Below are positions 28,278 through 57,398 of a stretch of 64,000 nt of DNA, one piece after another. The notes under the pieces were generated by a model. It did not search any database. It was not told the origin of the DNA and was given only the letters and a program-made list of their open reading frames with translations. The number at the start of each line of letters is the position of its first letter. Position 1 is the stretch's first letter. Both the position numbers and the translations under genes were made by a program. Origin of the DNA: an uncultured delta proteobacterium (GTDB lineage Bacteria > Desulfobacterota > WTBG01 > CAIYCZ01 > CAIRTM01); the NCBI GenBank assembly GCA_963804955.1, contig CAWDSQ010000036.1:1-64000 (forward strand), read 5' to 3'.

Positions 28278-28371
28278 GGGGAGATTCTTGATTTTAAAAT
28301 TGGCGTAAGGGCGGGGTAATTCCCAATACATGTGAATGAGATGTATAATAATCGAAAAAACAAAAACCTAT

Positions 28372-28438
28372 TGTCATTCCGGCTTGTCCGGAATCCTTAT
28401 GCTGCGGTGGGAAAGATTCCGGACAAGCCGGAATGACA
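28372..28438. repeat. REP-like inverted repeat TGTCATTCCGGCTTGTCCGGAATC ... GATTCCGGACAAGCCGGAATGACA
   Basis: Perfect 24-bp inverted repeat; same family as the IS110 target site. Confidence 0.85.
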
Positions 28439-39988: not shown

Positions 39989-40341
39989 GCAGCGGATAGT
40001 TTGAGGTTGAGTCCCCTGCGACGGAGATCATTTTTCTGCACAGATACAAGGGATTCCCGTCAAGCGGGAATGACAGGGAATGAAGCCATCCAGCTCATGC
40101 ATGTAACTGTGTTTTGAGTGTCGGTTGCACGATTCAGTTAATTGCACTAATGAAAATCCGCACGAGCAATCCACCTGTTTGACATCTGAAGCTGAAGCAC
40201 ACAAATTTTTAACCATTGCATAACAAGGCCGGAGTCGGACATGCATGAGAAATAGGCCCCCGGGCTTTTTTCTATGCTATATTATAAGTTTAATTCTACG
40301 CAAGCAGCGTTTCTACTATAACAAAATCAAAGGAGGGTAAA

Positions 40342-51451: not shown

Positions 51452-52732
51452 CTATTCCAGCACCTGCCTGCCGGTTCCGAACAGGTCCCACACAATGACC
51501 GCCAGCACCATAATGCCCGCGGCGCTGTAGAAAACAAGGTCCCACCGGCTGGTGAGCGATACGACACAGCCGACAAATACCGGCACGATGGCTCCTGCGA
51601 TATTGCCCGCGGTAGTCTGCATGCCCATGATAATGCCTGCATAGCGGGGGGCTATGTCCATGGCATTGGGGCCGGTGGTGCTGCCGGTCATGGACATCAT
51701 TCCCAGGGCCAGCGTAATGAGCAGGATGGCCTCGGTTTTGTTTCCGGCATGGGCCAGCAGCACCAGGAACAGGCTCGCGCTCAGCAGGCTCACCGTGTGA
51801 AGGCACTTGCGCACCAGGGTGATGCTTCCCGTGCGCCTGATCCACCAGTCGGCAAACCAACCCGTGGCATTGCTGCCGATGACCATGGCTATATAGGGCA
51901 GCATCGAGTAGACGCCCATTTCCTTGATGGAAAATCCGTGCGCTTTGACCAGGTAGGTCGGCAGCCAGGTCAGAAACATAAAGAAGCCCCAGCTGGTGCA
52001 GAAATGGTTGGTCACCAGCGCCCAGACCGGCGCCTGCAGCATAATTTTTTTCCAGGGCGTTTTTTGCAGCGGCGGAAGCTCCGGCGTATGTGCTTTGATA
52101 TAGGCAAGCTCTTCGGCGCCGATCAGGCTGTGCTCCTCAGGCCTGTCGGCTGCAACCCTGTTCCAGGCCAGCAGCCAGACAAGACCGAATAATCCGAACA
52201 CATAGAACACGCACTGCCATCCGAAGGTGCTCATAATGAAGGCTGCCAGCGGGAAGGCGATAATATTGCCAACGGACACCCCCGAAAGGGTGAACCCCGC
52301 AACTCTGGAGCGCTCGCCCGCAGGGATCCATTTCGCGGTCATGCTCTGGATTGACGGGAAGTTGACGCCCTCCCCGATGCCCATGAGCGCCCGCATCGCC
52401 GTCATGCCGCCCACGCTGCGCGCCGCAGGGGTAAGCATTGTAAACACGGACCACCAGAGCACGCCGATGCTCAGTATGCGCTTGCCGCCGAACCGGTCGG
52501 CAAGCCAGCCTCCGGGAATCTGCAGAAGCGTGTACCCCCAGAAAAATGATGAAAGGATCATGCCCAGGGCGGCCTCATTCCAGCCGAACTCCTTCATGAT
52601 GACCGGCGCGGTGACTGAAATATTTACCCTGTCCATGTAGCAGATGAGGTTGCTCAGGAAAAAAAAGATCACCAGGCGGATACGCTGCGGAATCCGGGAA
52701 GTGCGGGTCTGTGCTGGGGCTGTCGGTGGCAT
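51452..52732 (-). CDS. MFS transporter, ACS/SLC17 family
   Basis: CYMDRVNIS, SSFFWGY..QIPGGWLADRFG, RALMGIGEG, WLPTY. Confidence 0.93.
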   Translation of the reverse strand: MPPTAPAQTRTSRIPQRIRLVIFFFLSNLICYMDRVNISVTAPVIMKEFGWNEAALGMILSSFFWGYTLLQIPGGWLADRFGGKRILSIGVLWWSVFTMLTPAARSVGGMTAMRALMGIGEGVNFPSIQSMTAKWIPAGERSRVAGFTLSGVSVGNIIAFPLAAFIMSTFGWQCVFYVFGLFGLVWLLAWNRVAADRPEEHSLIGAEELAYIKAHTPELPPLQKTPWKKIMLQAPVWALVTNHFCTSWGFFMFLTWLPTYLVKAHGFSIKEMGVYSMLPYIAMVIGSNATGWFADWWIRRTGSITLVRKCLHTVSLLSASLFLVLLAHAGNKTEAILLITLALGMMSMTGSTTGPNAMDIAPRYAGIIMGMQTTAGNIAGAIVPVFVGCVVSLTSRWDLVFYSAAGIMVLAVIVWDLFGTGRQVLE

Positions 52733-53108
52733 AGGCACTTCATAGCACAATCCGGGATCAACAGAAAGCCATAACAGAGGGTATCCGTTTTGATTTTTTG
52801 TGAGGATCAGCAGGGGGATAGTTTCCAGCCAGAAAACGGCGGTCCGGCAACCGGCCTGTAAATTTTTCAAGCCCTTCTCTGGATTTTTTTTAGATATAAT
52901 TTGACGTGCAGCCGGAATTCAATCTAGAATTACCTGTAGAGCCTCCTGCTTTGCTGGAGGTGCGGTGACTTTGGCCAGCCACTCATTCAGGTCATGGCCT
53001 GGTATCTGTCATGAAGCAAGATACGCAGGAACCTTTTTTTATGGCATGCAACAAATTACTATAATCAATTATTCATGTGTTGGCGAGCAACAGAGACCTT
53101 CGTCATTC

Positions 53109-53395
53109 CCCTATGTTAAAAGTCAAGGGGCACCGAGAATGAAAGCATTGTTTTTTTCTTGGCTAATAAAGATCACATAACCATATATGCAAGGAACAAT
53201 CCCTAAAACAATCTCCTATAAGCAGACAGGCCAGCCAAAGGCAAGAGCCGCTGCATTATCCGCATCATGTTTTAAAGGTGTGGGCCCGCAGTCTGGCTTG
53301 GAGCAGACGGGTTAAACCGCTGCAGGAATGACTCAGCGCTGCCCACAGAAAGAATATAATGGTGATTGTCCTTGTCCTTTGTTTTCGGGGTTCAG
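53109..53395 (-). ncRNA. Putative bridge/seek RNA of the IS (target-binding loop at 53279-53347)
   Basis: Internal loop whose strands match both flanks of the insertion site; transcript ends unknown. Confidence 0.8.
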
Positions 53396-54466
53396 TTATT
53401 CAACGATAGCCACAATATAGGGTTGCCGGTTGTTTAAAACAAAGCGTATTCGGTTCAAAAGTTTCCGGGCAATATGGATGATGGCGTTGTTCTTTTTCAG
53501 CCTCCGACACAGCTTATTAAAAGCCAGGGTCAACGCCGGGTCCTTGCGTACGGCAACCCAGGAGCTCTCCACCAGAATAGCCCGCAGCATCGGGTTGCGG
53601 CGCATGGTGATGTTGGTGATGTGTTCTTCTTCGCCGCTTGATTTTGTATCGGGGATAAGGCCGGCATAGCTTGCCAGCTTATCCAGATTTTTAAATCGGG
53701 AGATATCGCCGATTTCGGTTAGCAGTATCATTGCCGTTAGGGTGCTGATGCCGGGGATGGTTTTTAAAAGCCATACCGCTTCGACATAGTCGTAGGTTCG
53801 GGATAGCACAGTGATTTGCCGTGTTAACCCGGCAATGAGCTTGCGCAGATGCAGCAGCTCTTCAATGAGGGTTGTCAAGGCTATGGTGCCGCTTGTGTGT
53901 TCAAACTGTACTGATTCAAGCCAGCTGATGAATCGACGGGACCAGCGCTTTGTTTCCATTTCAGGAGGCAGAAAAACGCCATAAAAGGCCAGAAGTGAGG
54001 CAATCTGGTTCTTGCAGCGGGTCTGTTTGCGGACCATGCCGTACCGGGTACGTAGCAAGCTGCGATCTTCACGCTGCATACTGCCGGGAATATAAATAGG
54101 CTGCAGGTCATGGCTTCTCAAGTTTTTACCCAATTTGCGGCTGTCGATTTTGTCATTTTTGCCGCGGCGCTGCTTGTCGGTCGTGGGAACATCGGCAGGG
54201 TTGACCACCATGGAGTCAACTCCCTGCTGATGAAGACTATCATGAATCCAGTAGCCGCAAAAGCCTGCTTCGTAAGCAGCATGATACGAAGCGCCCGGGA
54301 ACATGCGTTTGAGATAGCCCACAAGGCTCTGTGCATTGGGCGGCTGTGTGAATGTTTTATGTTCATGATGTTCGGAAAAAATGCTCACGGTCCAGCTCTT
54401 TTTATGAACGTCCATGCCGACGTAGATGTTTTGCCCGGTAAAATCGGGCTGTACGGTTTGTTTCAT
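53396..54466 (-). CDS. IS110 family DEDD recombinase/transposase
   Basis: GMDVHK, YEAG, KNDKIDSRKL, TIPGI, YAGLIP..SSG (catalytic Ser motif), ARKL. Confidence 0.95.
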   Translation of the reverse strand: MKQTVQPDFTGQNIYVGMDVHKKSWTVSIFSEHHEHKTFTQPPNAQSLVGYLKRMFPGASYHAAYEAGFCGYWIHDSLHQQGVDSMVVNPADVPTTDKQRRGKNDKIDSRKLGKNLRSHDLQPIYIPGSMQREDRSLLRTRYGMVRKQTRCKNQIASLLAFYGVFLPPEMETKRWSRRFISWLESVQFEHTSGTIALTTLIEELLHLRKLIAGLTRQITVLSRTYDYVEAVWLLKTIPGISTLTAMILLTEIGDISRFKNLDKLASYAGLIPDTKSSGEEEHITNITMRRNPMLRAILVESSWVAVRKDPALTLAFNKLCRRLKKNNAIIHIARKLLNRIRFVLNNRQPYIVAIVE

Positions 54467-54704
54467 GGCAAGCCTCCTTTATGATGAGTACTACCATTTT
54501 ACTGTAGCATTCTCAGTGTGGCTTGCTTCTTCTTTTAAACATAGGGTCTGGCTTGTCCGGAATCATTTTTCAGCATACCAAAAGGGATTCCCGTCAAGCG
54601 GGAATGACAAGAAATGCTGTCATACAGCTAACGTATCCAACTGTTTTATGATTTTTGGTTACAAGATTTAGTTAAATGCTCTAACCGTGCAGAGGGGGAA
54701 TCTT

Positions 54705-57398
54705 ATGAACGATGACGGCAAAAACAGGCGGCAGCTTCTGGAAGAGCTGGCGCTGCTGCGCGATAAAGTTGCAGAGCTTGAAGGCGCGGCGGGCGCCGCG
54801 CCCGGGGCTGGAATTAAAAATGCTTCCAAAAAAAGGAAAAGCCCCGCGTTCAAGCTTGACACGGCAGGAGTAAAAGCACCAGGTGAGATCGAGGCTCTCG
54901 TCCGGTTCTGTCTCGACAAAGTTCCTGACAGCGTATGCCTCACGTCATCCGGAGGCAGAATCCTGTATGTCAATGCTCCTGCCGCAAAAAATCTGGGCTA
55001 TGCCGTTGAAGAGCTGACAGGAAAATCCATGGCGGAGCTTGGCCCCAAAGCTCCCCGGGGCGCATGGAAAAAGCGGTGGTCTGAAATAAAGCAGAAGGGC
55101 TCATATTTTTTTGAAAGCCATCACATAAGAAAAGACGGATCTGTATTACCCGTTGAAGTTATGGCAACCCATATTGCTTTCAGGGGCAGGGAGTATGGCT
55201 TTTTTCACGCCCAGGATATCAGCGGCCGCAAATCAATAGAACAGGACCTGATAGACCAGAAAAATTTCTATGAAAAGATTCTTGAAACCGTCAATGACGG
55301 CATCTGGGTTACAAGCCCGCAGGATGTTATTATCTATACCAATAAGGGAATGACAGGGATTTCCGGCATCCCCAAATCTAAAATTGAGGGTGTACATGTC
55401 CTCAACGGCTTCCCTGAAGAAACCATAACAAACTTCGGGCATTTTTACCGTGAGGCGCGAAAAACACTGCAGCCGGTGCAATATGAGGCATTTGTGGTGA
55501 CGCCGTCAAACAGGGAAACCTGGCAGGCAGGCTGGCTGATACCGCTGGCGCATCAAGGCCGCTTTAACGGCATGATCTGCACCACACAGGATATTACTAT
55601 CCAAAAGCAGACGGAGGATCAATACAGGACAATTCTTGAAACAACGCAGGACGGCTTCACCCTGCTGGATATGCAGGGCCGTCTTCTGGATGTGAACGAT
55701 GCCTTCTGCGCTATGTCCGGATACAGGAGGGACGAGCTTTTGCGGATGCGCATCGGTGATATTGATGCGGCCCTGACGCCCCGGCAGATCAAAGGCATAA
55801 TCAGCGAAGTAAAAAAAAGCGGAGGAACCTTTTTTGAAACAAGGCACCGGAGAAAAGATGGAAGTATTGTTGATGTGGAAATACGCTTATCGCACTTTGG
55901 CGCCGGAGAGGGAAGGATGGCCAGTCTGGCCCGCGACATTACCGGGCGAAAGCGTATGGAGGATGAGCTGCGCCAGAGCGAAGCCGTGGCGCGCACGCTC
56001 CTGCATATACCCAGCACCGCCATGATGCTGCTTGATACAAAAGCCAGTTTTATTGAAGTCAATGAGACAATGACAAAGCGATTTTGCAGGACACGAGAAG
56101 AAATGAGGGGAATGTGCCTGTGGGACATCCTGCCGCCGCATGTCGCAGAGCTCAGGAAAGGATATTTTGCACAGGCTTTATCAACGGCTGAAATGGTGCG
56201 CTGGGAAGATGAGCGGCAGGGCATGTGGAACGACAACTCCTTTATCCCGATTACCGATGAGCGCGGAAGATAGTGCAGGTAATAGGATTTGCCGTTGATA
56301 TAACGGCAGGCAAGCGGGCTGAAATGCTCCTGAAAGAATCAGAGGAGCGGTACCGGCAAATATTTGAAACATGCGCCGAGGGGATTCTGGTGGCGATATT
56401 AAGACCAAGCGCTATACAATATGCAAATCCGGCAATGTGCGGAATGCTTGGCTATACCCTTAAGGGGCTGCTGCAAAAGAGCCTGACTCCGCCATCCAAC
56501 TTCGAAAATGTACAAGCTTTTGAAGAGGCAAAAAAATATTTTGCAGAGATTGCCACGGGGAATACGATAACTGGCCGTGCCATCCCCTGCCGGCATAAGG
56601 ACGGCTCTATTACTCTATGTGAATATAAGCGGCACAAAGATGAACATTGACGGCCGTGAATACAACGTGGGCTTTTTTACCGACATAACCGAGAGAAGAG
56701 CTGTTGAGCAGAAGCTGCAGAAAAGCGAAGAGCTGTTCAGGCAGACCTTTGAGCGTGCCCCTATCGGCATTGCCATTTTTGACAAAACGGGCACTGTCGT
56801 GAATGCGAACTCTTTTTTGTCAACCATTCTCGGTTATGCAACGGATGCATTGAAAGAGCATGGTATTGATATGCATTTGCATGCAGAGGATAAGCAACGG
56901 AGCATCAAGGCTCTGCTGTCTTCCCTTGAAAAGCTCCGCGAGCATGCCGTGTGCGAGAAGCGCTATGTCGCCTGTGACGGTCATACGGTCTATGTAAAAG
57001 AATATACGCAGGGCATTTTCAGCACAGCGGATGATCTTGTGTTTCTGATTGTCCTGATTGAAGACATAACCACCCGCATGCAGGCTGAAAACCTCAATAT
57101 AAATGTTATTACAAAGCTGAAGGATGTGTATAATGAGCTGCAAGACTTTTCCGCGATGCTGCCTGCGGAGCACAAATTTTCGAAACTTGTGTCCATTCAT
57201 GATTACAATCTCTCCCCCATGGAGAACAGGGTGGCATCATTGATCTATAACAGCTATTCGAATCAAAATATCGCATCAAAGCTCAATATTTCTGAAAATA
57301 CGGTTAAGCATCACATAACAAGCATCTTCAGCAAATTCAAAGTCAGAAACCGCCTTGAGTTTCTAAAAATTATCCGGGAAAAGCGGATAGTTATTTAG
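54705..57398 (+). CDS. Multi-PAS domain LuxR-type HTH transcriptional regulator (two frameshifts)
   Basis: About six PAS/PAC units (RKDGS, DIT.RK) and C-terminal LSPME..SNQNIASKLNISENTVKHHITSIFSK. Confidence 0.85.

Follow-up and report, generated by a model that had tools for sequence, protein, structure and literature searches.

The locus at positions 53110 to 54549 of contig CAWDSQ010000036.1 (GenBank assembly GCA_963804955.1, an uncultured delta proteobacterium) raises the question of how an insertion sequence (IS) lying within a repeated hairpin found its site, and where exactly the element ends and its target begins. The contig was analyzed over a stretch of 64,000 nucleotides (nt), here called the window. 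We consider it highly probable that 53110-54549 is an intact IS1111-type IS of the IS110 family carrying a two-loop bridge (seek) RNA, with one loop reading the target and the other reading the joined ends of the element. For 93.0% of catalogued IS1111 elements a bridge RNA has already been predicted, lying inside the right end (PMC11208160), and the kind of mechanism is therefore known. It was described in 2024, and the element is a new example rather than a new mechanism.

The element and its recombinase

The main parts of the element and its flanks are as follows, with left and right given in element orientation.

53110..54549, minus strand: whole insertion sequence, 1440 bp, without target duplication, reading AGACCCTATGTTTAAAAG ... 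CTTTTAACATAGG in element orientation; placed by empty sites, flank overlap, and donor-loop fit
53396..54466, minus strand: recombinase gene, an open reading frame of 356 amino acids (aa) with DEDD RuvC-like and Tnp domains and the motif GLIPDTKSSG
54532..54549, minus strand: left end, AGAC plus inverted repeat, containing a -10-like TATGTT (54538-54543)
53110..53126, minus strand: right end, the inverted repeat CTTTTAACATAGG (53110-53122) overlapping a -35-like TTGACT (53121-53126)
53102..53109, plus strand: right half of the target, GTCATTCC, part of a hairpin resembling repetitive extragenic palindromic (REP) sequences in a ~200-bp repeat
54550..54681, plus strand: left half of the target (GGCTTG...) together with the remainder of that ~200-bp repeat copy

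The recombinase matched the Pfam domains PF01548 DEDD_Tnp_IS110 (E 2.4e-15) and PF02371 Transposase_20 (E 2.4e-22), and it scored 207.6 bits against a cutoff of 140 with the NCBIfam model NF033542, "IS110 family RNA-guided transposase." It also aligned to the IS621 chain 8wt6_A (E 2.7e-8) and to ISCro4 (9t56_A). D, E, D, and D and the serine of the SG motif stood in register with 8wt6_A, where we take them to be the catalytic residues of IS621, and all aligned positions were kept. An earlier note, made from the bare sequence, had called the locus an intact IS110-family element of IS1111 type, and the full reading frame, the domains, and the downstream RNA bear this out.

The noncoding stretches of the element are unequal, with 83 nt upstream of the recombinase (54467-54549) and 286 nt downstream (53110-53395). 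IS1111 elements are described as carrying their RNA downstream of the gene, with the top-strand complement 5' of the bottom-strand match and no duplication of the target; a GL-P----S(t)G motif in the C-terminal domain; subterminal inverted repeats of ~11 to 13 bp with extensions of 7 bp on the left and 3 bp on the right; and a promoter expected across the joined ends (PMC11187229). The downstream noncoding region, the GL-P----SG motif, the guide order, and the absence of a duplication were all found here, and the ends agree in part, the left extension being the longer one. The inverted repeat, CCTATGTT(T)AAAAG, is 13 to 14 bp long with one indel; on the left it lies at 54532-54545 (CCTATGTTTAAAAG), behind the extension AGAC at 54546-54549, and on the right the extension is 0 bp. 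The exceptions to the published pattern are the extensions (4 and 0 bp instead of 7 and 3 bp) and a slightly longer protein. Joining of the ends in a circle gives TTGACT, 17 nt, and TATGTT, a promoter-like arrangement. End joining would in this way build a promoter that could drive the recombinase gene and then the RNA behind it.

Public names within the clade of this element are generic only; of the named relatives found, ISSso6 came nearest, at ~31% identity (plasmids; ISfinder lay outside the sources searched). Among 8000 candidates scored, 4513 proteins belonged to the clade at E 1e-20 or better, all of them generically named. The clade is large and purely environmental, and the element is far from the characterized enzymes.

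The downstream RNA and its guides

The RNA, of ~150 nt, is predicted to lie downstream of the recombinase gene and to form two internal loops.

53279..53347, minus strand: target-binding loop, with UGUGGGC/GCCCACA as the basal stem, CGC/GCG as the second, a large internal loop, and, at 53303-53323, an inner hairpin
53325..53332, minus strand: 5' guide strand GUCAUUCC, which complements GGAATGAC on the top strand of the right flank
53291..53300, minus strand: 3' guide strand CAAGCC-AGAC, six left-flank bases plus the first four bases of the element
53201..53277, minus strand: donor-binding loop, with the basal stem CUUUAAAA/UUUUAGGG and the hairpin GCAGC..G(U)CUGC (helices 3 and 4)

A scan of one genome per species (the genome set) yielded 77 loci with relatives at 31-98% identity, and the downstream regions of 25 of these were aligned with that of the window (26 sequences). 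The aligned RNA consists of two stem-loops of like build. GUGGGC/GCCCAC forms the base of the first, which continues through a 3-bp second stem and a large internal loop to the hairpin GCAGC...G(U)CUGC; the base of the second is CUUUAAAA/UUUUAGGG, beyond which come an internal loop and a similar hairpin. Standard pairs were present in 94.0% of the cells of this alignment, compared with 33.7-44.8% when the partners were slid. Compensatory, two-sided change was seen in 22 of the 32 pairs, and the covariation score was reached by none of 500 shuffles. For helices 1 and 2, which make up the target loop, 92.7% and 94.2% of the cells were paired, with compensatory pairs numbering 8 of 10 and 4 of 6, respectively. 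A covariance model (R1) built from 25 of the aligned sequences gave 56 matches in the 77 genome loci and 72 matches in 80 metagenome loci, none of which had been used in model building. In its own genome it gave exactly two matches, one per copy of this element, and no orphan RNA copies.

The target loop matches both flanks of the element. GTCTGGCTTG (53291-53300) is identical to the occupied left junction over 10 nt, and the 8 nt of GGAATGAC (53325-53332) recur in the right flank. When the noncoding region was shuffled 2000 times with dinucleotides preserved, a 10-nt match arose once and an 8-nt match 32 times, but the two together never. The earlier note had read these matches one base shorter, as TCTGGCTTG at 53292-53300 and GAATGAC at 53326-53332, in a loop closed by TGTGGGC/GCCCACA (53279-53285 and 53341-53347) and the inner hairpin GCAGACGG..CCGCTGC (53303-53323). 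All of these strings are present at those positions, as are the junction strings that it gave, GTCAT-TC followed by CCCTATG (53102-53115) and CATAGGG followed by TC-TGGCTTG (54540-54555). Its claim of an RNA downstream of the recombinase with a readable target loop aimed at a REP-like hairpin repeat was sound. The two guides are ordered with the top-strand complement 5' and the bottom-strand match 3', and they meet at the insertion point.

Covariation of guide and target across homologues, which that note had proposed as a check, was strong. It was scored on the metagenome set of insertions not used in the model, with cross-family pairings as the comparison. The 3' strand matched the left junction over at least 8 nt for its own flank in 45 of 63 cases, against 6 of 4063 cross-pairings (0.15%), and the 5' strand matched the right flank over at least 8 nt in 45 of 63 cases, against 80 of 4262 (1.9%). 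Distinct guides in this set numbered 48 for the 3' strand and 45 for the 5' strand. The target-loop strands vary by family and track the flanking DNA within a conserved scaffold. In the Bacteroidales loci L056-L058 of the genome set, for example, the 3' strand is CCUAAAGGC and the left flank is CCCTAAAGG followed by the C of the element, while the 5' strand GUCCCCC faces the right flank GGGGGAC. In L085, L086, and L099, UAACCUAGAC corresponds to TAACCTAGA followed by C, and the complement of the 5' strand, AGCAUAAAAU, corresponds to the right flank. The same tracking was seen in that set in L092, L117, L088, L115, L067, L054, and L055. Insertions of the same element elsewhere have CAAGCC on the left (L053, L163, and L164) and, in L053, GGAATGAC on the right.

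The second loop, which the earlier note did not see, is the bridge RNA's donor-binding loop. Its 3' strand, AUAGGAGA (53212-53219), is identical at 8 of 8 nt to the circle junction, in which CATAGG is followed by AGAC. When it was compared with the predicted circle junction, this strand matched over at least 7 nt across the joint in 20 of 20 families and likewise in 58 of 58 loci of the metagenome set. In L092, where the end is changed to CATAAA, the donor loop follows it with AUAAAAG.

These matches suggest the following course of insertion. The 5' strand GUCAUUCC would pair with the target's top strand immediately 3' of the crossover, over the eight bases of GGAATGAC. The 3' strand CAAGCC-AGAC, which has the sense of the top strand, would pair with the bottom strand along the six bases that lie 5' of the crossover, and this 3' strand would run on into the first four bases of the element itself. 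The donor-loop 3' strand AUAGGAGA would read across the joined ends of the excised circle. Insertion would then take place between CAAGCC and GGAATGAC, in one arm of the REP-like hairpin, and would duplicate no bases; AGA would travel with the element, and the target would keep its own GG. By analogy with ISEc11 and IS621, the RNA would be produced, processed, and bound by the recombinase, which would catalyze the exchange.

Several further observations concern the RNA, its targets, and the gene leader. Six Bacteroidales insertions (L054, L055, L059, L170, L174, and L186) lie beside ...GTTAGG, which we take to resemble the core of integron attC sites, targets of some IS1111 elements. A contig of the metatranscriptome run X19 (record 15) joins 53142 to 53270 and represents a relative that lacks the donor-binding loop (53143-53269) and retains the target loop. 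R1 matched twice in each of two loci, L089 (3639-3784 and 4009-4115) and L082 (3617-3770 and 5027-5180); in L089 the second match starts right behind the right end, so that the copies are tandem or nested. The genome also holds a second, different IS110-family element, in which R1 found no RNA. The positions of that element, found by a search of the genome, and of the leader are as follows.

C7:225320-226357, C24:162788-163825, and C30:74607-75644, with a partial copy at C30:24209-24985: second IS110-family element, the three full copies having 402-aa frames
54468..54526, minus strand: 5' leader hairpin, predicted fold, in which GCAAGCC (plus strand GGCTTGC, 54520-54526) pairs with GGCUUGC (54468-54474)

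The GGCUUGC segment of the leader sits just before the start codon. Its hairpin segments change together in relatives, as judged by eye (GCAAGUCU/AGACUUGC and GACAAGUCC/GGACUUGUC), which suggests translational control.

Alternative readings and the placing of the ends

Some of the results weigh against an intact, RNA-guided element. The minimum-energy fold of the whole 287-nt noncoding region was no better than that of shuffles (z -0.97), and the structure therefore rests on covariation rather than energy. An Rfam scan of 52500-55200 gave chance-level matches only, none near a gathering score, and hence no RNA family; the scan of an empty repeat copy gave nothing. The 5' strand of the donor loop showed no clear complementarity to the left end, with only a partial AAGG/CCTT seen by eye. 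In 4 of 54 two-flank metagenome insertions (L237, L192, L162, and L169), neither guide matched over 7 contiguous nt. One of these, L162 (a metagenome contig, 617-2072), has a recombinase 97% identical to that of the window and a 3' guide with UUAGCC in place of CAAGCC, and its site, TTTTCAAC on the left and GGGGTAATGAGG on the right, fits both guides poorly; either a naturally varied guide or insertion off target may explain it. The 3' guide of the window has one mismatch to the consensus target, A opposite C, and a natural guide-target mismatch is known for IS621 (PMC11208160). Contigs from metatranscriptome runs cover the element in pieces (53115-53846 in X19 and 53913-54614 in X20, where the uncovered parts carry no meaning), but as evidence of RNA they are weakened in that they come from relatives at 90-99% identity and possibly from DNA carry-over. 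Finally, the genome has only one intact and one deleted copy of the element, given 19 free sites.

The last of these points bears on the most serious alternative, that of a stranded copy whose anatomy is intact but which is no longer mobile in this lineage, its RNA not being made in useful amounts. The second copy in the genome (C26:94842-95970) is 94% identical and lacks the left end as well as the gene's 5' third, and the 19 consensus target sites have remained empty. IS621 bridge RNA, moreover, is weakly expressed from integrated copies (PMC13626964). Yet the reading frame of the window copy is full length with every aligned catalytic position kept, the fit of both its loops to flank and ends is still perfect or close to it, and near-identical elements occur at other repeat copies in other assemblies (L053, L163, and L164). 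We regard a stranded copy as rather unlikely, though it deserves more weight than the other alternatives.

A second alternative concerns the boundaries. The earlier note had placed the element at 53109-54546, with a TC (GA) core duplicated on both sides, a 7+2+5 geometry like that of IS621, and an empty site GTCAT-TC-TGGCTTG (GTCATTCTGGCTTG). On such a reading the element would have chosen a rare variant of the repeat. The flanks belong to a repeat of ~200 bp that is present in at least 12 full copies at 74-97% identity, including the occupied copy (window 53044-53109 and 54550-54681), 40022-40134, 28359-28438, C26:27272-27476, and others. Its 68-bp palindromic core is present in more copies and contains two REP-like hairpins, ATTCCGG-ACAAG-CCGGAAT and ATTCCCG-TCAAG-CGGGAAT; the core also occurs alone, in either orientation. 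The target hairpin is repeated ~20 times in the genome. The outer ends of the ~200-bp repeat resemble inverted repeats, and it may be a miniature inverted-repeat transposable element. In a Nitrospirota genome, related elements target a similar repeat ending in GGAATGAC.

In favor of the duplicated core, TC is indeed present on either side of the terminal repeats (CCCTATG at 53109 and CATAGGG at 54546), the 3' guide contains TCTGGCTTG exactly and matches GTCATTCTGGCTTG perfectly, one unoccupied copy of the exact 14-mer exists (C26:175981), and the same left junction recurs in two independent insertions (window and L053). Against this, the unoccupied sites of the genome read GTCATTCCGGCTTG 19 times and GTCATTCTGGCTTG once, giving GTCATTCC directly followed by GGCTTG as the consensus. 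Contigs of three other public runs (X1, X18, and X20) likewise run GTCATTCC straight onto 54550 (...GGTCATTCC, joined exactly there). A sister family with 14 copies in one Nitrospirota assembly (G001) uses a like repeat as its target. Its left junction reads ...AGA before CTTTATG in 11 of 11 full left flanks (a 12th flank is cut to 4 nt) and its right ends read CATAGA before GG in 13 of 13, yet AGAATGAC, with the variant base, is found in 0 of the 24 repeat sites of G001, whereas CAAGC[C/G]GGAATGAC is found in 16. In the metagenome set, AGA or AGG preceded 65 of 65 left ends whatever the target, with the motif unconstrained. Element ends elsewhere in the analysis were placed by motif rules and checked by eye, as fuzzy inverted-repeat matching misplaced several right ends.

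The empty-site sequence, the contigs of the other runs, the sister family, and the 65 left ends indicate that AGA belongs to the element, which therefore extends over 53110-54549. The T at 54549 is part of the element, and the GG of the target differs from the AG of the element. In BLAST comparisons with empty repeat copies, the flank matches overlapped by two bases. Donor loop and circle junction agree in 20 of 20 families when the ends are set here, compared with 14 of 20 with the ends proposed before; a right flank beginning with GG marks precisely the six families that misfit, this element included. Instead of the identical core dinucleotide that is duplicated at both boundaries in the IS621 type, the left dinucleotide here is AG and the right one GG. 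A duplicated TC/GA core and a 7+2+5 geometry are accordingly not supported, and we judge the earlier placing of the ends improbable. The single unoccupied GTCATTCTGGCTTG, at C26:175981, lies in a diverged repeat copy that has also lost one loop base. It could be an excision footprint, but this copy is only 84% like the others, so that plain mutation explains it equally well.

The third alternative, in which the protein chooses the target and the downstream structure is merely a 3' untranslated region, terminator, or regulatory element, is very improbable: nothing specific speaks for it beyond the unremarkable fold energy of the whole region, whereas the loops change with the flanks while the stems stay paired through compensatory changes, and the RNA is essential and reprogrammable in ISEc11 and its relatives (PMC11187229).

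Strand exchange and comparison with known systems

With the element placed at 53110-54549 and its target read by the RNA, the junctions themselves can be compared. The left and right dinucleotides of the metagenome insertions were AG and AG in 38 cases, AG and GG in 18, and AG and AA in 2, and the reverse was never seen. AG(A/G) always lies on the left and the dinucleotide of the target always on the right, also where the two differ, as in 20 of 58 metagenome insertions, 13 G001 right ends, the window, and L053. A staggered two-strand exchange over a mismatched core, followed by random segregation, should yield both arrangements, whereas a one-sided outcome would fit insertion through the top strand alone. 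Such insertion has been proposed for a Caloranaerobacter IS110 element (bioRxiv 10.1101/2025.10.25.684509). We tentatively suggest, as a possibility that falls short of being the likelier one, that the natural junctions of this clade record the direction of strand exchange, with the one-sided outcome that top-strand-only insertion would give. If this is true, REP-targeting members like this one are natural test cases for the top-strand model in the IS1111 branch.

Within its genome, the locus is an ordinary mobile element in an ordinary repeat. IS110/IS1111 recombinases are under development as programmable genome editors, and well-resolved natural orthologues are therefore useful. What is gained for this clade is an RNA covariance model, exact ends, the positions of three of the four guide strands, and the rule that the left AG(A/G) is donor borne, while the first target base past the crossover may differ.

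Among known systems, ISPpu9 of Pseudomonas putida, also of the IS110 family, resembles the element in its insertion into REP sequences and in a small-RNA gene downstream of the transposase (PMC12288879). The likeness is one of description, and host and repeat are different. Orphan RNA copies are reported there, whereas the two R1 matches in the genome studied here both lie within copies of the element.

IS621 (Durrant et al. 2024, PMC11208160; Hiraizumi et al. 2026, PMC13626964) is alike in having a two-loop RNA with each loop reading both strands, REP-type natural targets, a tolerated mismatch, a junction promoter, and a recombinase of DEDD-plus-serine architecture. In contrast to the element described here, the IS621 RNA lies upstream, in the left end, and its guide order is reversed. 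The CT core of IS621 is the same in donor and target, whereas here the donor has AG(A) and the target has AG, GG, or AA. The two recombinases are only distantly related (E 2.7e-8).

There is a close likeness in organization to the IS1111 seekRNA elements ISEc11, ISKpn4, ISPa11, and ISPst6 (Siddiquee et al. 2024, PMC11187229), with which the element shares the downstream noncoding region, the guide order, and the meeting of the two matches where insertion occurs. Elements of the ISEc11 type are also alike in the longer left extension, the lack of a duplication, the GL-P----SG motif, and the expected junction promoter. The recombinase is longer, at 356 aa compared with the 330 to 350 aa given for the family. 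Here the inverted repeat extends to the very right end, although the 4-bp asymmetry between the two extensions is the same. The element further differs from these relatives in the low identity of its recombinase to named members (~31% to ISSso6) and in its target, the REP-like hairpin of an uncultured Thermodesulfobacteriota-like genome.

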